In this document: positions 2,134-25,391 of the stretch, piece by piece | Position numbering within the stretch: position 1 is the first letter of the stretch | Layout of the letters: each line of letters begins with the position of its first letter | NCBI GenBank assembly: GCA_949292205.1 | Contig: CASEYR010000006.1 | Span: forward strand, 32,016-96,015 | Direction of reading: 5' to 3' | DNA length: 64,000 nucleotides | Origin: an uncultured Alphaproteobacteria bacterium | GTDB lineage: Bacteria > Pseudomonadota > Alphaproteobacteria > CAAHEQ01 > UBA3637 | Made by a program: the position numbers and the translations under genes | The notes under the pieces: model-generated | Told to the model about the DNA's origin: nothing | The model's database searches: none | What the model saw: only the letters and a program-made list of their open reading frames with translations

Positions 2134-4115
2134 TTTCCCCTGCTTTTTATAACTTACTGCAAACAGAATATAAAAATATATCCGTCTTTTATATCGTCGC
2201 TTTTATCGCCGGTATCTTGTGTTGGTTGGACGGCTTTCATCCTTCGGGATTCTTGTGGGGCTTTTTGATTGCTCTGCCGTTTGTCTTATTGCTCCTAAAC
2301 AGAAAACGGTATCGTTGGCCGCATGTTCTGGCTTTTATGACTCTCTTTTTCGGTATCGGTTGTTTCGCAACAGCTTTTCGTGCCGAATCCGTTCAGGCGC
2401 CGACAATACCGAAACCGATGTATCATGTGGTGCTGACGGGAACGATTTCCGATGCCTCGGTTTTGATGGACTCGCAGAAAGTCATTGTGACGGATGTCCG
2501 TTTCCTGAATGAACCCGCTGTGATGCCGCCGACAAAAATAAAATTGACTTTTCATCAAACGGAGCCTCGCTTGACGGTTGGACAAACAGTGCAGGCTGAA
2601 GTTTTCTTGCGGCCTCCCGGAAGACCGGTGGCCCCCGGAGCTTATAACGAAGCCAGAGCGTTATGGTTTCAACAAATCGGTGCCGTCGGAACAATCAACA
2701 AAGTCATTCATCTATCAGAGGCACCGCACGTATCTGCTATTAAAAAATATATTGAGCGGATTCGAACCGTTATCAGTCTGCGTATTCAAAAGGCAATGCC
2801 GGTTGAACCGGCCCGAATTGCTATCCCGTTGGTTATCGGAGAGCAGGGCGTTGTTTCACAACACTTGTATGATATTTTTCGGAGTGCCGGTATCACCCAT
2901 GTTCTATCTGTTTCGGGTTTCCATTTGAGCTTGTTGGCGGCTCTGGTCTTTTTTCTGATACGCGGCGGATTGTCCTTTTTTCCGAGCATTGTTGAACGCA
3001 TCTCGACCAAAAAAGTGGCGGCTTTTACGGCGCTGGTTTTCTCGGTGGTCTATATCGCTATTTCGGGACTTCAGATTCCGGCTATCCGATCCTTGATTAT
3101 GATTGCCGTCGTCTTAATCGCGATGCTCTTTGACAGAAATGCTTTCTCGGTTCGATCTCTATCAATCGCGGCCTTCTTAATCTTAATCGTTCGTCCCGAA
3201 ATGGTATTAAATATCGGATTTCAACTTTCTTTTATGGCCGTTCTCATCCTTGTTACTTTGTATGATCCTTTGGTGCACTTGATTTTTCCGAGTCGCCCCG
3301 TTCATTTGCTGCTTCGTTTCGGTGCCGTTATCTTGAGTTTTATCATTGTTGATATTTTGACGGCTTTGGCTACAACTCCCTTTATTATTTATCACTTTAA
3401 TCAATATGCTCTTTACAGCGGTGTCGGTAACTTGTTAACCGGAACTATTTTATCCTTTTGGGTGATGCCGATGTTGTTGTTTGCGACTTTGTGTATGCCT
3501 TTCGGCGGGGAGGTGCTTTTCTTAAAAGGGGCTGCTTTGGGATTAGAATATGTCGTGGTTGTGTGTGAGGCAATCCAAAATTGGCCGTTGGCTTTGACGA
3601 CATTCCCCTCCTACGGCGTGGCCGCTTTGTTGACAATGACTTTCGGTGTTATTTGTTTATGCTTGATGCGGACGCGGTTGCGTTTCGTCGGATTTGGGGT
3701 GATTTCTCTTGGGGTAATCTTGGCTATTCTGACGCCTCGTCCTGATTTGTTGGTCGGTGATAAGGGCTTTTCCGTTGCCGAGCGGACAGCTGACGGCAAG
3801 TTGCACTTTTTAACGACCGGAGAGTCGGATTATGTTCGGCAGGCTTGGTTGTTGCGAAATGGAGAAAATCCTTTGGATAATAATGTGGCTTATCGGCAAA
3901 AATTGCCCTCGGCTATTTGGATGAAGCATCAGAAAATTGCTTTCTCGGCAAAAGAATGCTTGGATGCCGATCTGTGCTTTCTCCCCGAGCCTAACCCCAC
4001 GATGCCAAATGCTTTGCCCTTATACGAGTTTAATACGCGCGCCGTCTATATAACGCCCCTTGGCATCATCGTTCGTCGCGCCGAAGAGAGTGATGTCGGA
4101 AAGCCTTGGTTCTGA
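2112..4115 (+). CDS. comEC: ComEC/Rec2-family DNA internalisation channel protein (no metallo-beta-lactamase domain)
   Basis: 667 aa, polytopic; competence-domain signature ITHVLSVSGFHLSLLAALVFF. Confidence 0.8.
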   Translation: MFERMSLISPAFYNLLQTEYKNISVFYIVAFIAGILCWLDGFHPSGFLWGFLIALPFVLLLLNRKRYRWPHVLAFMTLFFGIGCFATAFRAESVQAPTIPKPMYHVVLTGTISDASVLMDSQKVIVTDVRFLNEPAVMPPTKIKLTFHQTEPRLTVGQTVQAEVFLRPPGRPVAPGAYNEARALWFQQIGAVGTINKVIHLSEAPHVSAIKKYIERIRTVISLRIQKAMPVEPARIAIPLVIGEQGVVSQHLYDIFRSAGITHVLSVSGFHLSLLAALVFFLIRGGLSFFPSIVERISTKKVAAFTALVFSVVYIAISGLQIPAIRSLIMIAVVLIAMLFDRNAFSVRSLSIAAFLILIVRPEMVLNIGFQLSFMAVLILVTLYDPLVHLIFPSRPVHLLLRFGAVILSFIIVDILTALATTPFIIYHFNQYALYSGVGNLLTGTILSFWVMPMLLFATLCMPFGGEVLFLKGAALGLEYVVVVCEAIQNWPLALTTFPSYGVAALLTMTFGVICLCLMRTRLRFVGFGVISLGVILAILTPRPDLLVGDKGFSVAERTADGKLHFLTTGESDYVRQAWLLRNGENPLDNNVAYRQKLPSAIWMKHQKIAFSAKECLDADLCFLPEPNPTMPNALPLYEFNTRAVYITPLGIIVRRAEESDVGKPWF

Positions 4116-12085: not shown

Positions 12086-14149
12086 ATGAAAAGCAAATAC
12101 CATATGACATCTATTGATGTAGCGGAAGAGTCAGCAGAGTTAAATAAAAGATATACCCGAATAAAGAGAAGTAAAGAGAATGAATCGGGGCGAAGTATGG
12201 TCGAAATGCTGGGCGTTCTGGCCTTGATGGGTGTGTTGGCTATTGCTGGTGTTATGGGGTATCGATGGGCTATGGATAAGTATCGGGCAACGGATACCAT
12301 CAATGAAGTAAATCGGCGGGCAATTGTTCATTCCACTCAACTGATGTCATCAGGCGTTTTAAATGCTTCCGAGTTTCCCCTGGAAACACGTCAAGGATAT
12401 GGCACAGAGGCAACTCTGCTGACCGGAAATCAAACGGGTTATTTTGAAATTTCTCTGACAGACGTTCCTGGTGGGGTGTGTCGCGAGATATTAAAATCCG
12501 ACTGGGTATGGCCGGTCATGAAGAAAGCCAACGGAATAGACTATACAGGCAATGCTGATATTTGTCGAACCGATACAGGCGTGCGAATGGTATTTGTATT
12601 TTCCAGTGATTTAAGCGGAAAGTCAGCAGACTTCAGACAACGTTGTCAAAAAGATGATGATTGTCGGAGTGCTTGCGGTGTCTGTGACAACGGATATTGC
12701 AGCAGTCAATGTCGAGAGGGAGAGACATGTGGACGAACCTATGATAATTCGGAATTTTATGCGTGTTGTTCAAACGATAAAGTCCTGAACGGCGTATGCT
12801 GTCCGACGATTATGAACGGACAATGTTGTGCCAGTATCGGCAGTTGTTGTCCTGCGGATAAGCCGTTAATGGACAAGGACGGGAACTGTCATACCTGTGA
12901 TGAGGAAGGCTCTGTCAATGTTACGGGCAATACGGTGATGTGTGGTATTTGCGACGGGCAGGACGGCCGAACGAAACGGGAGTTAAACGGAAATACATGT
13001 GTCTTGCCATGTCCTCCGGAAACACCTTTGATGGATAGAGATGGTAACTGTCATCGGTGTGATGAAGATTCTATTCAAATCACCGTTGCTAATAAATCAA
13101 AGTGTGATGTTTGTCCGGATAGAAATTATTGGGGACCAGGTGCACGATGTGAATTACCTTGTGGCATAAATTCATTTTTAGGAACTTACTCTAATTTGCC
13201 TTGTAATCCCTGTACGACAACAGACGCTATTAATATCACATATCGTTCCGCTGAAGAATGTATAACAAAATGTGATGGTAGCTCTCCAGATCGACCAAAG
13301 CGAATAGATATTTCGGCTGGGGCAGGATTGGCAACACACTTTTGTGCTTTGGCTTCTTGTCCTAAGGATAAACCGATACGTTCATCAAGTGGAACATGTT
13401 ATGCCTGTGGCGTTCGAACTGTAAATGTAACAGGATTTGAGCAAACATGTTTTTCATGTCCGGGCTATGTTTTAAGAGGGAAAATATGTACGAACACAGG
13501 GTGTCCAACAGGATCTCAAGCTAATGAAGAAGGGCGTTGTGTGTGTGATGACTCGACACAGGTGCAGGATTCAAGTGGAAATTGTTATCCCTGTGATTCG
13601 GGTACGATTATTGATGTAACGGGAGTTTCCGAAAACTGTGATGTGTGTCAAGGGAGGCGTGTTACCAAGGTTTTTTACCCAAGTGTTACAAAATGTATGA
13701 AGCCGTGTGCAGATGATGAGTTCTATACTGGTGAGGGATGTCGCAAATGTAATGATACGGCTGTCATAAGTATGTATGATGATGCTGAGTATTGTTTATA
13801 CTGTGATGGGCAAGAGGGACGTGCACAACGCGTATGCGTCCCAGGGGCGTGTCATGCTTGTGCGTTGGTGTGCTCTTCGGGTATGACGATGGCAGGAGAC
13901 GGCACGTGTCATACATGTGATGAAGTGGAACCGTTTAGTGTGTCAAACGGTATGACAGCCAGCTGTAATACTTTTTGTGCCGGAAAGAGATATCTGGTCG
14001 GAACGATGTGTTATAAGTGTCCGCCGGATACATACAGTCCCGATGCAAAACAATGTATTCAATGTCCTTATAACAATATGGAAACGCTAACACGAGAAGC
14101 TGATTGTCAGGCTTGTGGTGGTTCGTGGGACGGAACAACGTGTCAATAA
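12086..14149 (+). CDS. modular type IV pilin-like protein: class III (prepilin) signal peptide plus pilin-like head domain plus about 500-aa cysteine-rich tandem-repeat module
   Basis: AGAGGAG SD 7 nt upstream; 35-aa leader ending ...ENESG, then RSMVE with Glu at +5 and a 20-residue hydrophobic helix; Cys132/Cys160 fit a pilin D-region loop; residues 187-687 carry about 66 Cys with at least 5 repeats of about 35 aa (P-x-[DE]-[KT]-P-[LI]-x-D-x-D-G-N-C-H-x-C-D-E-x6-V-T-G-x4-C-x-x-C). Confidence 0.65.
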   Translation: MKSKYHMTSIDVAEESAELNKRYTRIKRSKENESGRSMVEMLGVLALMGVLAIAGVMGYRWAMDKYRATDTINEVNRRAIVHSTQLMSSGVLNASEFPLETRQGYGTEATLLTGNQTGYFEISLTDVPGGVCREILKSDWVWPVMKKANGIDYTGNADICRTDTGVRMVFVFSSDLSGKSADFRQRCQKDDDCRSACGVCDNGYCSSQCREGETCGRTYDNSEFYACCSNDKVLNGVCCPTIMNGQCCASIGSCCPADKPLMDKDGNCHTCDEEGSVNVTGNTVMCGICDGQDGRTKRELNGNTCVLPCPPETPLMDRDGNCHRCDEDSIQITVANKSKCDVCPDRNYWGPGARCELPCGINSFLGTYSNLPCNPCTTTDAINITYRSAEECITKCDGSSPDRPKRIDISAGAGLATHFCALASCPKDKPIRSSSGTCYACGVRTVNVTGFEQTCFSCPGYVLRGKICTNTGCPTGSQANEEGRCVCDDSTQVQDSSGNCYPCDSGTIIDVTGVSENCDVCQGRRVTKVFYPSVTKCMKPCADDEFYTGEGCRKCNDTAVISMYDDAEYCLYCDGQEGRAQRVCVPGACHACALVCSSGMTMAGDGTCHTCDEVEPFSVSNGMTASCNTFCAGKRYLVGTMCYKCPPDTYSPDAKQCIQCPYNNMETLTREADCQACGGSWDGTTCQ

Positions 14150-14193: not shown

Positions 14194-16587
14194 TTATTTG
14201 CGTTTATCCGGCGTACCTGCTTTTTGGGATTGCTTGAAAAACTGTGCTAAGCGTGCTTCAATCTTTCCGTTGATTGAGCCACTTGTCCAACGTCCGTTCT
14301 TATCCCTTTTGCCGGCTTTGTGGCCCGTCAGAATTTCCATGCCCTCGTCAATCGTTCGGACGGCATATAGGTGAAATAATCCTTTTTCAACCGCTTCAAC
14401 AACCTCCGGTCGTAACATCAGATTTTGAATGCTTGTCGCCGGAATGATAACGCCTTGGTCGCCGGTTAATCCGTTTTGTTTACAGACTTCAAAAAATCCC
14501 TCTATCTTTTCATTGACGGCTCCGACAGCTTGAACTTCTCCCAGCTGGTTAACCGAACCCGTAACCGCCAGAGATTGACTGAGCGGAATATCGGCAATCG
14601 CCGATAATAAACAATACAACTCTGCCGTCGATGCCGAATCTCCGTCTACTTCGCTATACGATTGTTCAAACACTAAACTGGCATCCAAAGACAACGGTGT
14701 GTGTTGTGCAAAGCGGGATGCTAAAAAGGAGGATAAAATTAACACGCCTTTTGTGTGAATCGGTCCGCCTAATTCAACTTCTCGCTCTATGTCAACAAAA
14801 TCACCGTGTCCCAGACGAATCTGGCACGTAACACGATTGGGGCGACCAAATGAGTAAATGCCGTAATCATGAACGACTAATGCATTGATTTGACCGACCT
14901 TGTGTCCGTCCGTATCTATGGCAATAATGCCTCGACGAATGGCTGTCAATAACTCTGTTTGAGCGTTCCCAAATCGCTTGCGTCGTTCGGCCAGGGCTTC
15001 CTCTATATGTGTCACATCAACAAATTTTGATTTTTGTGTGACGGCAATATAGTTGGCTTCCCTCATTAAATCGTTAACGTGAACTAAATAAGTGCTGAGC
15101 CGTTCTTGGTCGGTTGCCCAGCGAGAGGCTTGCTCAATCATACGCCGAATCGCCGGTGCCGAAAACGGACGGAGGCGTTCCGAACGAATGAAATTGGCCA
15201 GTAGTTGTGCATAGGCTCGCTCGGTTTGGGGTGTCCGCTCCATCTTTTCCGAAAAACGAGACTGTATTTTAAATAACTCACCAAACTCATCATCCTGTCC
15301 CGCCAAAGCGTAATAGAGAGAGGGCTCCCCGATTAAAACGACTTTGACAGACAGGGGAATCGGAGTCGGGTCTTGTGAAATAACGCCGAAAACAGAGTTG
15401 TCGTCAATGCCTGACTCCATCTTTATTTTCTTGGAAAACAGGCACCGTTTTAAAGCATTCCATGTCGACGGATTATCTAATAAATCTCGTGCTTCAATGA
15501 CTAAATACCCACCGTTTGCCAGATGAAGAGCTCCCGGACGAATCAAAGAAAAGTCCGTCATGAGTGAGCCTTGCAGCTGAATCCGCTCTATCTTTCCCAA
15601 CAAATTTGACAGCGTCGGATGGTTGACGTGAATAACCGGTGCCCCTTCGTCTGCTTTGTGACTGACGATTAAATTGACGGCGTAACGTGACCATAATGCG
15701 GCACTTTTATCAAAGTTTGTTTCTTCTGCTCCGTCCGTGTCCGGAATTAAAACTGAAACGTTATCTAACAGGCTTTGGCGAATACCGTCTAAAAATGCTT
15801 TGGCACCACTGTGCTTGGCATAACTTTTATTCAAATTCTTCATAACGGCATCAATCGTTCGGGAAGCTAATGAGATATTTAAATTATTTACCTCTTCTTG
15901 TTGATCGACTTCAAAAGACGGTGTATCACGGATCGCTTTTTCCAGTTTTGTTTGAGCCGTTTTCATTTGCTCTAAAATAGACTTGCGTTCCGGCTTTGGC
16001 AGGTTGTTGAAAACCTCCGGTGTTAAAACCTCGCCGTTCTTGGTGGGTGCAACAACAACCCCTTCGGGCATATGCATTAACGTCACATTTTCGCTTTGAA
16101 CCAATTTCTGAAGCGATGTGAAAAAGGCTTCTTTTGCAGCACGATACTTTTGATCAATCCGAGCGATTTTTATCTTATACGTTTCATCCGAAAAAACAGC
16201 ATTTAACTGCGTCTTGAGTGATGTGGCTAATTTTTTGATGTCCCGCTCAAAAATACGCCCTTTCCCTGCCGGAAAGTTAATGGCTTTCGGTTGATGCGGT
16301 GTATCAAAATTATGAACAAAGCACCAATCGTCCGGCGTCTTTTGCGTGGCTGCGTATTGTCGGATAACGGCTAATGATAAACTGGTTCGTCCGACCCCTT
16401 TCGGTCCCGTGCAAAAAATATTATATCCGTTCGCCTGCATTCGAATGCCGAAAGAAATAGCCTCTAGTGCTTGCTCTTGCCCGATGATGAGCGATTCATC
16501 GGACAGGGTTGTTAGGTCTTCGTCCGTTAATTGTGAGGGTGCATAAATCTGAGAAACTGTTAATTCATTTTCTGTGTGTTTTGACAT
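14194..16587 (-). CDS. Lon-like ATP-dependent protease (AAA+ ATPase plus C-terminal S16 peptidase domain; COG1067/LonB-like)
   Basis: 797 aa; Walker A TGPKGVGRTS; C-terminal LAVTGSVNQLGEVQAVGAVNEKIEGF, a Lon catalytic-Ser region; no LonA N-domain. Confidence 0.68.
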   Translation of the reverse strand: MSKHTENELTVSQIYAPSQLTDEDLTTLSDESLIIGQEQALEAISFGIRMQANGYNIFCTGPKGVGRTSLSLAVIRQYAATQKTPDDWCFVHNFDTPHQPKAINFPAGKGRIFERDIKKLATSLKTQLNAVFSDETYKIKIARIDQKYRAAKEAFFTSLQKLVQSENVTLMHMPEGVVVAPTKNGEVLTPEVFNNLPKPERKSILEQMKTAQTKLEKAIRDTPSFEVDQQEEVNNLNISLASRTIDAVMKNLNKSYAKHSGAKAFLDGIRQSLLDNVSVLIPDTDGAEETNFDKSAALWSRYAVNLIVSHKADEGAPVIHVNHPTLSNLLGKIERIQLQGSLMTDFSLIRPGALHLANGGYLVIEARDLLDNPSTWNALKRCLFSKKIKMESGIDDNSVFGVISQDPTPIPLSVKVVLIGEPSLYYALAGQDDEFGELFKIQSRFSEKMERTPQTERAYAQLLANFIRSERLRPFSAPAIRRMIEQASRWATDQERLSTYLVHVNDLMREANYIAVTQKSKFVDVTHIEEALAERRKRFGNAQTELLTAIRRGIIAIDTDGHKVGQINALVVHDYGIYSFGRPNRVTCQIRLGHGDFVDIEREVELGGPIHTKGVLILSSFLASRFAQHTPLSLDASLVFEQSYSEVDGDSASTAELYCLLSAIADIPLSQSLAVTGSVNQLGEVQAVGAVNEKIEGFFEVCKQNGLTGDQGVIIPATSIQNLMLRPEVVEAVEKGLFHLYAVRTIDEGMEILTGHKAGKRDKNGRWTSGSINGKIEARLAQFFKQSQKAGTPDKRK

Positions 16588-17885: not shown

Positions 17886-21477
<3,592 letters not shown>

Positions 21478-21582
21478 TATGTGTTTTATCCGACAACACG
21501 CCTTGTTTCAAGGCATGTTTGTCATATCCTAAACGTATTTGCCCGAAAATATAAACCTTTTTAAAATTATTTTTAAAATAAC

Positions 21583-21611
21583 TTGACTTTAAAATATAAC
21601 ATCTGTATACT
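21583..21611 (+). promoter_or_regulatory. strong sigma70-type promoter (TTGACT - 17 nt - TATACT)
   Basis: -35 TTGACT at 21583-21588, 17-nt spacer, -10 TATACT at 21606-21611. Confidence 0.6.
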
Positions 21612-21616
21612 TTCGT

Positions 21617-21915
21617 CGGATACGATGTCATCGTATCCTGAGTGCCGATAGGTGCAAAAGGGCCTTAACAAGCTCAAGTAGTAAAGGGGTGGGAGAGCCA
21701 CCCTACCGGAAAGAATGTCTGTCTTTTTTCGGACAGAGCGTGTATTCTTTCAAATCATTCCTTGACTTCGGTCGGGGAGCCTGTGGTGTATGTTCAGGGG
21801 CTTTGTTCCTTTGGGCATTGCCCTTGGGCATAGCTTCAAAGACTACAGGGGTCTTTTACTACTAGACTTGTTAACTCCCCGATCGCCTTTGTCAATCTCG
21901 GCAAGGGCTTTTTTG
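21617..21915 (+). ncRNA. candidate structured small RNA or long cis-regulatory leader of about 300 nt, family not identified
   Basis: No ORF; strong promoter and intrinsic terminator; multiple hairpins; long-range helix pairing 21665-21687 with 21852-21874. Confidence 0.4.
21885..21915 (+). terminator. rho-independent terminator
   Basis: GCCTTTGTC-aatctc-GGCAAGGGC (two G-U pairs) followed by TTTTTT; 20 nt before the SD of the OMP gene. Confidence 0.6.
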
Positions 21916-21939
21916 TAACGATAAAAAAAGGAGTTTAAT

Positions 21940-22518
21940 ATGTTTAATAAAACTAAAATCAGTATGCTTTCAGTTTTTGCATTGACGATGGCGGTGTCAT
22001 CTGCCGGATATGCTTATGACTTGAAGCCCTATGTCGGAGCCGGATATACTTATACCGATGTGGAGCTTAATCATCACTTTGACGCAGTCGCCGAAACCGA
22101 TTATCATTCGGCCTTTATCGCCGCCGGTGTTCAGCCTCATCAAAACTGGGGATTGGAAATGTTTTATCAAGCTTCAAAAGAAGAAAGCAAATCTATTGCC
22201 GGACTTGTGAAAAATAAAACGGATTTTCAAGCTATCGGTCTTGATGCTCTGGGATATTTGCCCGTTCATCAACGCGTGAATCTAATCGGCTCTGTCGGCT
22301 TGGGCCACTACCGCTTTCATACAGATGCCGATGGGCTTGTTTCACTCTCTGAAACAGAGAAAAATTTGGGCTGGCGATTCGGCGCCGGTGTCCAATATCA
22401 ACTAACCGATAATTTGGCTCTGCGTGGTATGGCTCGCTATGTTATGCTGGATACAGACTCCGGCGATGTCGTTGATCGTATGATGGATGTATCGGTGGGG
22501 GCTTACTGGCAGTTTTAA
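21940..22518 (+). CDS. outer-membrane beta-barrel protein (Omp25/Omp31/OmpW-like, OMP_b-brl family)
   Basis: AAGGAG SD; signal peptide ...SSAGYA; alternating-hydrophobic beta strands; C-terminal YWQF ending in an aromatic residue. Confidence 0.7.
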   Translation: MFNKTKISMLSVFALTMAVSSAGYAYDLKPYVGAGYTYTDVELNHHFDAVAETDYHSAFIAAGVQPHQNWGLEMFYQASKEESKSIAGLVKNKTDFQAIGLDALGYLPVHQRVNLIGSVGLGHYRFHTDADGLVSLSETEKNLGWRFGAGVQYQLTDNLALRGMARYVMLDTDSGDVVDRMMDVSVGAYWQF

Positions 22519-24584: not shown

Positions 24585-25391
24585 TTACTCGCGTGCGTGC
24601 TCGGTTTTCGGAGACGGTTGAGCCATCATCTGGTTATCAATCTTTTTTGCTTGTCTGCCAATTGCTACGGCAATGATGGCTTGGATTTGGGGAGTAATTT
24701 GTGTCTTGTTTTGTTTCATGATATCGGGCAACGATGTGCCGTGCTTACTTGTTACATGAACCGACGCCCCTAAATCCAATAATTTTTGAAGAACTTTGGG
24801 TTTGTTCATCAGAGTGGCACAAAAAACAGGGGATTCTTCTACCTTTGGAATCCGTTGATTTAAATCAACCCCGTTTTGATGAAATAAATCAATCATTGCC
24901 GGCATATCTTGTATTAATGCTATTGACAGGGGGGATAGCCCTCTTTTATTTTGCGTCATTCGTGCGCCGTTTTTCAGTAAAAAGCGTGCAATCCTTGTGC
25001 GGCCGGCAGTGACAGCAAAGATTAATGGCGTGTTGCCATTCTCATCAGATACGTTAACATCAGCTTTCAGTTGTAGAACCAAATTCTTTACGGTGTCTAA
25101 TTGGCTTCCCTCGGATACGACGGAAAGAAGTGTTTGTGAGGCTTGTTTCCGAACGGAGCGTCCGATATGTTTCGGGTTAAACAGACCACAGGGATTAACT
25201 GTATCGGCACATAGATTGATGTTAAGGCGTGCCATATTAAGCGCTATTTCAAGTCGTTGAGTTTGACGAGCTTGAATCTGTTTTTGTTGTTCCGGTGTCA
25301 ATCTGGCCCAGATAGATTGGATACGTAGTTGCTTTTTGTCGGGGGCTTCTATTGTAGGTTCCGGTCGTTTTTTGCGAAAAAATAATCCCAT
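24585..25391 (-). CDS. ankyrin-repeat protein
   Basis: Several 33-aa ankyrin units, e.g. GNTPLIFAVTAGRTRIARFLLKNGARMTQ and GLSPLSIALIQDMPAMIDLFHQNGVDLN. Confidence 0.75.
   Translation of the reverse strand: MGLFFRKKRPEPTIEAPDKKQLRIQSIWARLTPEQQKQIQARQTQRLEIALNMARLNINLCADTVNPCGLFNPKHIGRSVRKQASQTLLSVVSEGSQLDTVKNLVLQLKADVNVSDENGNTPLIFAVTAGRTRIARFLLKNGARMTQNKRGLSPLSIALIQDMPAMIDLFHQNGVDLNQRIPKVEESPVFCATLMNKPKVLQKLLDLGASVHVTSKHGTSLPDIMKQNKTQITPQIQAIIAVAIGRQAKKIDNQMMAQPSPKTEHARE

Follow-up and report, generated by a model that had tools for sequence, protein, structure and literature searches.

C4 of bacteriophages P1 and P7 is an antisense RNA (Rfam family RF01695, clan CL00128) whose leader is described as a family of its own (c4-a1b1, RF03163). 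In the phage P1 record the elements stand in the order promoter, a1, b1, C4 RNA, a2, b2 (on the icd ribosome-binding site, RBS) and icd. The promoter of the c4 locus is constitutive, and a spacer separates b1 from the compact RNA. C4 itself folds into a closing stem and two hairpins; the loop of hairpin 2 holds the antisense sequence b', and a' is situated in the joiner that leads to the 3' strand of the stem. For C4-type RNAs a GGW motif is reported at the RNase P cleavage site (PMC5320573). A second RNA of this kind is sRNA-Xcc1 (RF02221), an integron-encoded small RNA (sRNA) of Xanthomonas with homologues. RNAs of the C4/sRNA-Xcc1 type are present in multiple copies in genomes (PMC12189769). 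In the list of C4 taxa of Weinberg et al. (2010), as it is given in PMC5320573, the Alphaproteobacteria do not appear. Here we describe an RNA locus in a stretch of 64,000 nucleotides, called the window, from an uncultured Alphaproteobacteria bacterium (GCA_949292205.1, contig CASEYR010000006.1, positions 32,016 to 96,015). The neighbours of the RNA are gyrB, a gene for an outer-membrane protein (OMP) and PEPCK. The region from 21612 to 21915 is probably the primary transcript of an antisense RNA cassette of the C4/sRNA-Xcc1 type, and judged by its sequence the RNA looks like a distant, unannotated relative of these RNAs inside a longer precursor.

The order of the elements in the window matches that of the phage P1 locus, including the spacer between b1 and the compact RNA, and the parts of the compact fold occupy the same places as in C4 (Table 1). 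Shared with C4 are also the promoter, a closing stem that begins with GGU, an (R)CC motif after this stem and a co-transcribed next gene. A first-pass annotation had already proposed a structured RNA with its own promoter and terminator at this place. Both signals are present as predicted; the -35 and -10 boxes are found at the equivalent place in the homologues, and compensatory changes are visible in the terminator stem in the homologue alignments. The 304-nt transcript has a minimum free energy (MFE) of -133.1 kcal/mol, compared with -90.2 ± 5.5 kcal/mol for 100 shuffled sequences (RNAfold; z = -7.8, 0 of 100 as good). Together with the conservation, this argues for a discrete, highly structured non-coding RNA unit, as had been supposed. 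The hairpins GGTGG...CCACC and TCTGTC...GACAGA were both recovered. The first hairpin, GGATACGA/TCGTATCC, is present too but lies at 21618-21638, one base off the earlier 21619-21639. The earlier view that the region holds no open reading frame (ORF) needs to be qualified, as mechanical ORFs of 42-58 aa overlap it. However, the homologues vary by insertions, deletions and compensatory base-pair changes, which by comparison of the sequences is not a coding pattern. The OMP gene has its start codon at 21940 and its Shine-Dalgarno (SD) sequence at about 21930.

Covariation supports two overlapping folds of this RNA, a precursor fold with a long-range helix and hairpin P6, and a compact fold of 21770-21884. 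The long-range helix had been predicted from the window alone together with a check for covariation in relatives. It is found in the MFE fold, which pairs 21665-21687 with 21852-21874, and it covaries strongly: in a duplex matrix the strands of the same lineage pair with -23 to -37.5 kcal/mol, those of different lineages with only -3.5 to -21.5 kcal/mol. Within the 64 kb of the window, the a1/b1 region is the best sense-strand partner of a'/b' (-29.9). The G-rich beta strand (21770-21779) is able to pair either in 5' direction with the alpha strand, which gives P6, or in 3' direction with the gamma strand, which gives the closing stem. In an alignment of 15 sequences, 96% of the cells of P6 are paired and 4 of its 9 pairs are changed on both sides; for the closing stem the values are 98.7% (97.5-98.7% if the second alignment described below is included) and four pairs with double changes. 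P7 is paired in 100% of the cells, with double changes in 4-5 pairs. For P6 and the closing stem, 500 shuffles never came up to the covariation score or the percentage paired of the real alignment, and when the register was slid, the paired share fell to 32-50%. A second alignment of 20 sequences was fitted to model R1, which describes the compact fold and was built from 11 short members, the window being absent from the training set. Here, 98.5% of the cells of the compact fold are paired, with compensatory changes in 16 of 27 pairs, while hairpin 2 reaches 99% with double changes in 4 of 5 pairs; these pair counts lean towards the compact fold. The energies of both folds are similar. With the closing stem enforced, the precursor reaches -127.2 kcal/mol compared with the -133.1 kcal/mol of the masked fold, a gap of only 6 kcal/mol. 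By MFE, the excised RNA (21770-21915) forms the closing stem around two hairpins; b' occupies the loop of hairpin 2, and a' is single-stranded.

The link to the known families was approached from both sides. In gathering mode, Rfam 15 finds only two tRNAs in the whole window and nothing at threshold for the RNA, a check that the first-pass annotation had suggested. With E ≤ 10, the region 21450-21960 gives chance matches only, and ARAGORN detects no tRNA or transfer-messenger RNA (tmRNA) at the RNA. A literature search by sequence string and topic returned nothing on the window RNA. More distant relatives (L021-L024), reached via OMP homologues of 31-37% identity to the OMP of the window, are closer to the Rfam models. 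The best Rfam match is that of L024 to positions 1-87 of the sRNA-Xcc1 model (35.7 bits, E = 0.0026), below the gathering threshold of 53 bits. L022 (27.6 bits), L023 (22.9 bits) and L021 (22.0 bits) match this model over its full length, also below threshold. The C4 model, with a gathering threshold of 45 bits, gives sub-threshold matches for L023 (26.6 bits) and L022 (22.5 bits) and 68.8 bits for the phage P1 control. The matches of L021-L023 to one or the other family are full-length and lie in the same place. In these alignments of relatives, beta:gamma takes the place of the closing stem, after which aCC follows. P7/P8 corresponds to hairpin 1, also to that of sRNA-Xcc1, and the stem GUCU/AGAC to hairpin 2, the loop of which is formed by the 3' strand of the long-range helix.

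In the reverse direction, model R1 scores 68.4 bits on the window (E = 8e-13), and other members that were not used for training score as well. Applied to sRNA-Xcc1 RNAs that pass Rfam, R1 matches at 1182-1269 of L030 (27.0 bits, E = 8.5e-5), at 1185-1267 of L029 (19.0 bits) and at 1197-1278 of L031 (15.3 bits). The alignments of these three matches are full-length (E = 8.5e-5 to 0.036), and their coordinates agree within 1-3 nt with Rfam matches of 69-73 bits. In the first 2 kb of the phage P1 stretch, which contains the c4-icd-ant operon, R1 ranks C4 above all other matches (12.1 bits, E = 0.052). Both architecture and, at a weak level, statistics link the RNA to sRNA-Xcc1 and C4.

By analogy with C4 of phage P1 we infer how the RNA would be processed, how it would switch from one fold to the other and what it would target, as follows. 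The full-length transcript could hold the antisense RNA in a masked state because its leader carries the complements: a1/b1 would pair with a'/b', and alpha would block the closing stem by pairing with its 5' strand. Cleavage at about position 21770 would then free a compact RNA of some 115 nt (21770-21884, with GCC after it) with the G-rich closing stem, hairpin 1, hairpin 2 with b' and the joiner with a', as C4 of phage P1 is cut by RNase P at GGW. Sequence features for a C4-like 5' maturation are present, namely GGU at 21770 and GCC after the stem. The freed a' and b', together with the anti-SD sequence AACUCC, may pair with the ribosome-binding sites of target mRNAs and repress their translation. 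AACUCC (21873-21878) comprises the last two bases of a' and the 5' part of gamma and is complementary to the SD region. The first-pass annotation had left open an independent sRNA or a cis-regulatory leader; in the proposed scheme the RNA would combine the two roles, as an antisense RNA derived from the leader at the 5' end of an mRNA.

Several points weigh against this interpretation. The complementarity to the OMP RBS of the window is limited to AACUCC:GGAGUU with imperfect extensions, and the a'/gamma duplex at this site has -13.7 kcal/mol, compared with a background of -8.9 ± 3.3 kcal/mol. This is about 1.5 standard deviations and within the range of the background. A duplex scan of the 64 kb window gave no trans target beyond background. 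The window gives no match to C4, sRNA-Xcc1 or c4-a1b1 even at E ≤ 10, none of the members tested passes the curated threshold of an Rfam family, and the reciprocal matches are weak (12-27 bits). The register of the alpha strand was picked by best fit, and one divergent clade (L021-L024) accounts for most of the compensatory changes seen in P6 and in the closing stem, which thus represent few independent events. In addition, most members carry an intrinsic terminator between RNA and SD, which phage P1 does not, and the genomic context in the window is chromosomal (gyrB, PEPCK) and not a prophage immunity region with genes of the icd/ant type.

Table 1. Features of the RNA locus and the downstream OMP gene in the window, with their counterparts in the c4 locus of phage P1. 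The hairpins P1 to P8 are names of helices in this RNA.
Feature	Position	Strand	Counterpart in phage P1	Remarks
Sigma-70-type promoter TTGACT-17-TATACT	21583-21611	+	promoter	10 of 12 consensus positions
Transcription start (inferred)	~21618	+		
5' leader hairpin P1	21618-21638	+		RNAalifold pairs of P1/P2 include compensatory changes
5' leader hairpin P2	21642-21655	+		GNRA-like loop
a1-like site UUAACAAG	21665-21672	+	a1	5' strand of long-range helix, complementary to a'
b1-like site	21676-21687	+	b1	5' strand of long-range helix, complementary to b'
Variable leader hairpins P4, P5	21686-21707, 21711-21749	+		hairpin also in homologues, with varying length and sequence
Alpha strand UUCCUUGAC	21758-21766	+		pairs with beta as hairpin P6 of the precursor fold; masks 5' strand of closing stem
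Beta strand GGUCGGGGAG	21770-21779	+	closing stem, 5' strand	invariant, G-rich; begins with GGU
Hairpin 1	21780-21849	+		P7: 21780-21787 with 21842-21849
Internal loop of hairpin 1, GUAUGUUCAG opposite AAAG	21788-21797, 21838-21841	+		conserved
P8	21798-21837	+		variable insertion in hairpin 1
Hairpin 2	21851-21867	+	b' (21855-21863)	stem GUCU/AGAC, variable 9-nt antisense loop b'; seen in MFE fold of excised RNA
a' CUUGUUAA	21867-21874	+	a'	last stem base of hairpin 2 and single-stranded joiner to closing stem; complementary to a1
Gamma strand CUCCCCGAUC	21875-21884	+	closing stem, 3' strand	followed by GCC to 21887 (RCC motif; ACC in most relatives)
Intrinsic terminator GCCTTTGTC-AATCTC-GGCAAGGGC + T6	21885-21914 (element 21885-21915)	+		9-bp GC-rich stem, 6-nt loop
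SD AAGGAG	21928-21933	+		
Possible weak a2-type site	21929-21947	+		duplex with a'/gamma at background level
OMP beta-barrel gene	21940-22518	+		PF13505, E = 2.4e-21

Since duplex energies do not discriminate in GC-rich loci, exact repeats were counted instead. Such a2/b2-type repeats occur at the next gene in some relatives. In L022, the 10-mer TTAACAACCG and the 7-mer CCACATA are repeated exactly at its SD and start codon, and exact repeats at the RBS were found in L006 and L024 (8-mers) and in L015 (7-mer).

The same C4-like RNA might act only in trans, with the OMP gene not a target but merely expressed by read-through. The background-level complementarity to the OMP RBS and the terminator of the RNA would agree with this, as would sRNA-Xcc1, which is described as trans-acting and occurs in multiple copies in other genomes (PMC12189769, PMC5320573). 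Although it is the strongest of the competing explanations, we consider it unlikely in view of the genomic context and of the exact repeats just described. At every inspected locus the gene that follows has the same orientation, with its start 23-74 nt behind the gamma strand. Homologous RNAs with 70-75% identity were found upstream of OMP homologues, while the other neighbours are all different: gyrB stands beside the RNA-OMP pair in the window, and a LysM-like gene, ileS or pnp in other contigs. The linkage of RNA and OMP gene persists through the rearrangement of all other neighbours, down to the OMPs of the divergent clade, and the physical coupling noted in the first-pass annotation was borne out. 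Between terminator and OMP gene, a promoter scan revealed no promoter-like site. Because no promoter of its own was detected, the OMP gene is apparently expressed only by read-through of the terminator, and therefore the cassette at the least gates this gene. For annotation, the cassette accounts for an OMP gene with no detected promoter and for the recurrent assembly breaks in a conserved 40-nt core.

The relatives of the RNA are found in chromosomes and plasmids; 20 related sequences were traced to gut alphaproteobacterial metagenome-assembled genomes (MAGs), metagenomes and more than 120 plasmids. A search with the core pattern identified two uncultured alphaproteobacterial MAGs (GTDB species representatives) and seven metagenome contigs. 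By BLAST of the window RNA against plasmids, a 43-nt core was found at 189 places on 126 alphaproteobacterial records, mostly conjugative plasmids of Rhizobium and Agrobacterium, but also of Paracoccus; many of these records have two or three places. In the three plasmids that were inspected, the RNA lies upstream of a gene for an XRE-type regulator. The downstream genes of the family are unrelated and code for the OMP, the XRE regulator, a DUF5818 protein, a pilin-like protein and unknown proteins; Pfam gave mostly no match for the non-OMP downstream proteins. In viral contigs and a phage collection, only ORFs of phage proteins or short unannotated stretches were hit, which are not homologue-like.

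Neither BLAST nor nhmmer found a second copy of the RNA in the 64 kb window. Several independent assemblies break inside the core. The contigs L001-L004 start at the equivalent of window position 21768 and L020 ends at 21786; L009 starts at the core and L021 inside the RNA. Such breaks suggest that a genome contains the core more than once or that strains living together have it in common. On the Agrobacterium pAt plasmid L026, two C4-like copies (2516-2604 and 3544-3632) lie 1 kb apart, one before an XRE regulator gene and the other before a gene of the AraC family. Because of the assembly breaks, the plasmids with several copies and the multiple copies of C4/sRNA-Xcc1-type RNAs elsewhere, it is likely that the lineage of the window also has more than one copy per genome.

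A co-occurring strain variant of the window RNA is seen in L002-L004. Over the alignable 3' part, to which the comparison is confined as the contigs break at the core, it is 95% identical. Within the RNA, the differences are essentially confined to the hairpin-2 loop (positions ~85-100, corresponding to window 21853-21864), with CUUGCUAAGGUUAG instead of CUUUUACUACUAG; the b' loop of the variant is UGCUAAGGUU. This difference recalls the way in which phages P1 and P7 differ.

The promoter, the long structured RNA, the terminator and the SD form a layout that is typical for a riboswitch or attenuator, which the first-pass annotation had also put forward. The junction of the long helix would then be a ligand-sensing aptamer, and alpha:beta and beta:gamma would be the alternative states of an expression platform for termination and access to the SD. 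The overlap of the three pairings alpha:beta, beta:gamma and gamma:SD would suit such a device, and the internal loop GUAUGUYCA/AAAG is highly conserved across the family. The base of the terminator overlaps gamma by 4-5 nt in 8 of the 13 terminator-bearing members, but in the window the two do not overlap at all; L024, which has no terminator, has its SD some 15 nt downstream of gamma. The helix itself closes no aptamer but pairs a1/b1-like sites with a'/b' of the embedded RNA. It is hypervariable and lineage-specific, as antisense specificity sites are, and follows the a1/b1 logic of phage P1. Moreover, the functionally unrelated downstream genes are ill-suited to control by one metabolite, and no riboswitch family of Rfam matches. 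Because the distant members match the sRNA-Xcc1 and C4 models and the layout of phage P1 fits, we rate the riboswitch as quite improbable.

A long structured 5' untranslated region that only stabilises or times the OMP mRNA in the manner of the ompA leader, with no antisense function, would be in line with an OMP gene that lies directly behind the element and has no detected promoter of its own. It is hard to reconcile with the presence of the same RNA before unrelated genes, with a terminator before the SD and with two alternative folds that are both kept by covariation, so that we give it very little credence. Least credible of all is a miniature inverted-repeat transposable element (MITE), another repeat remnant or a housekeeping RNA: the arms at 21665-21687 and 21852-21874 do resemble terminal inverted repeats and assemblies break within the element, but the arms covary between lineages rather than being conserved, the element is single-copy in the window and it always has a promoter and the same orientation to the next gene, while for a housekeeping RNA neither Rfam nor ARAGORN gives a match. 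A MITE was ruled out since the arms differ between lineages yet stay complementary. 6S RNA and tmRNA were also ruled out, and RNase P RNA and signal recognition particle (SRP) RNA are disfavoured, as the fold is multi-branched and has no central bubble, tRNA-like domain or P4 helix; the suggestion of a 6S-like RNA was not upheld, because it has no Rfam match and its architecture differs.

Some further observations concern the surroundings of the RNA. Between the stop codon of gyrB and the RNA promoter, a weak terminator-like hairpin, GCCTTGTTTCAAGGC, is located at 21500-21514. The U-run of the terminator can pair with an A-run just 5' of the SD (21909-21930), so that read-through transcripts would contain another hairpin; an equivalent U/A-rich hairpin stands 3' of the terminator in L005 and L007. 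The locus L010 is nearly identical to L011/L014 in the RNA (two bases apart) and the two downstream genes, while the upstream islands are wholly different, with a DNA methylase in one case and an AAA ATPase plus a nuclease-like gene in the other. The islands join the shared part about 10 nt 5' of the -35 box, and downstream a fragment of an integrase is present. On Rhizobium etli p42d (L025), the ar14 sRNA (RF02344, 97 bits) is encoded at 1380-1506 on the minus strand, about 1 kb upstream of the C4-like RNA and opposite to it. L029, a Neisseria gonorrhoeae record that is labelled as plasmid by PLSDB although it has 2.17 Mb, contains a second C4-like match at 1409-1478 (26.7 bits, model R1), 140 nt downstream of the sRNA-Xcc1 that passes Rfam.

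Elsewhere in the window, a cysteine-rich ORF of 687 aa (12086-14149, plus strand) has the prepilin-like N-terminus ESGRSMVEMLGVLALMGVLAIAG and no Pfam match. The gene downstream of the RNA homologue in L013 (3272-3766) begins with the same motif. A LonB/LonC-like AAA protease is encoded at 14194-16587 and an ankyrin-repeat protein at 24585-25391, both on the minus strand, and the related MAG contig L008 contains a gene similar to anaerobic ribonucleotide reductase. These three genes and the GTP-PEPCK suggest a host-associated anaerobic alphaproteobacterium.

A further reading can only be offered tentatively, and we see it as rather doubtful at present: the family may be a widespread, unrecognised alphaproteobacterial branch of C4/sRNA-Xcc1, in which a self-masked precursor gates the RNase P substrate helix and a phage-immunity RNA has been domesticated for the control of OMP genes and of XRE regulators on plasmids. 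If so, the pairings alpha:beta, beta:gamma and gamma:SD, together with a1/b1:a'/b', would act as a conformational gate on this helix. The branch would be chromosomal in gut lineages and multi-copy on conjugative plasmids of rhizobia, agrobacteria and Paracoccus, and the fast-diverging b' loops would confer a strain-specific, immunity-like specificity.

Compared with generic transcriptional riboswitches and attenuators, the locus shares the promoter, the long structured leader, the mutually exclusive helices, the terminator and the SD. In contrast to these, it has no coherent regulon and no known aptamer, and the supposed closing helix is formed by lineage-specific antisense sites. A further known case are the C4-like sRNAs of 'Group 1' in Acinetobacter baumannii, which are cut from longer transcripts, with sequence coverage starting at GGW, and which vary in a' and b' (PMC5320573). 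Unlike the family described here, they belong to a different phylum-level group and pass Rfam as C4, and no linkage to an OMP gene is described for them.

With sRNA-Xcc1 the family has in common the closing stem GGnCGGGG/CCCCGnCC followed by ACC, an asymmetric internal loop rich in A/U within hairpin 1, and also hairpin 2 and the joiner. The sRNA-Xcc1 RNAs matched by R1 stand about 40 nt in front of a gene of the same orientation, such as that of a BRO-family protein, and the RNAs of the family likewise precede a co-oriented gene. The family differs by its covarying 5' leader of 110-160 nt with a1/b1 and alpha, a comparison made from the family side only, by its occurrence in Alphaproteobacteria and by the associated genes (OMP, XRE regulator). 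Compared with C4 of phage P1, which has a closing stem of 17 bp and a plain hairpin 1, the family has a stem of 10 bp, and its hairpin 1 is long, with an internal loop that is conserved. Further additions are the stem-masking alpha strand, more hairpins in the leader and, as a rule, a terminator ahead of the SD. Its context is chromosomal or that of conjugative plasmids instead of phage immunity with icd and ant, and a2/b2 sites at the next gene, present in phage P1, are clear in some members only. The C4/sRNA-Xcc1 kind of RNA is known; the alphaproteobacterial branch is new in that it stays below the Rfam thresholds and has the long hairpin 1, the alpha strand, the terminator and new partner genes. 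The family is well supported and missed by Rfam at threshold, even on the heavily studied plasmids of Rhizobium and Agrobacterium, and it would extend the C4/sRNA-Xcc1 type of antisense control to the Alphaproteobacteria. With masked precursor fold and mature fold both kept by covariation, it offers a natural system for the role of the upstream a1/b1 sites of C4-type RNAs.

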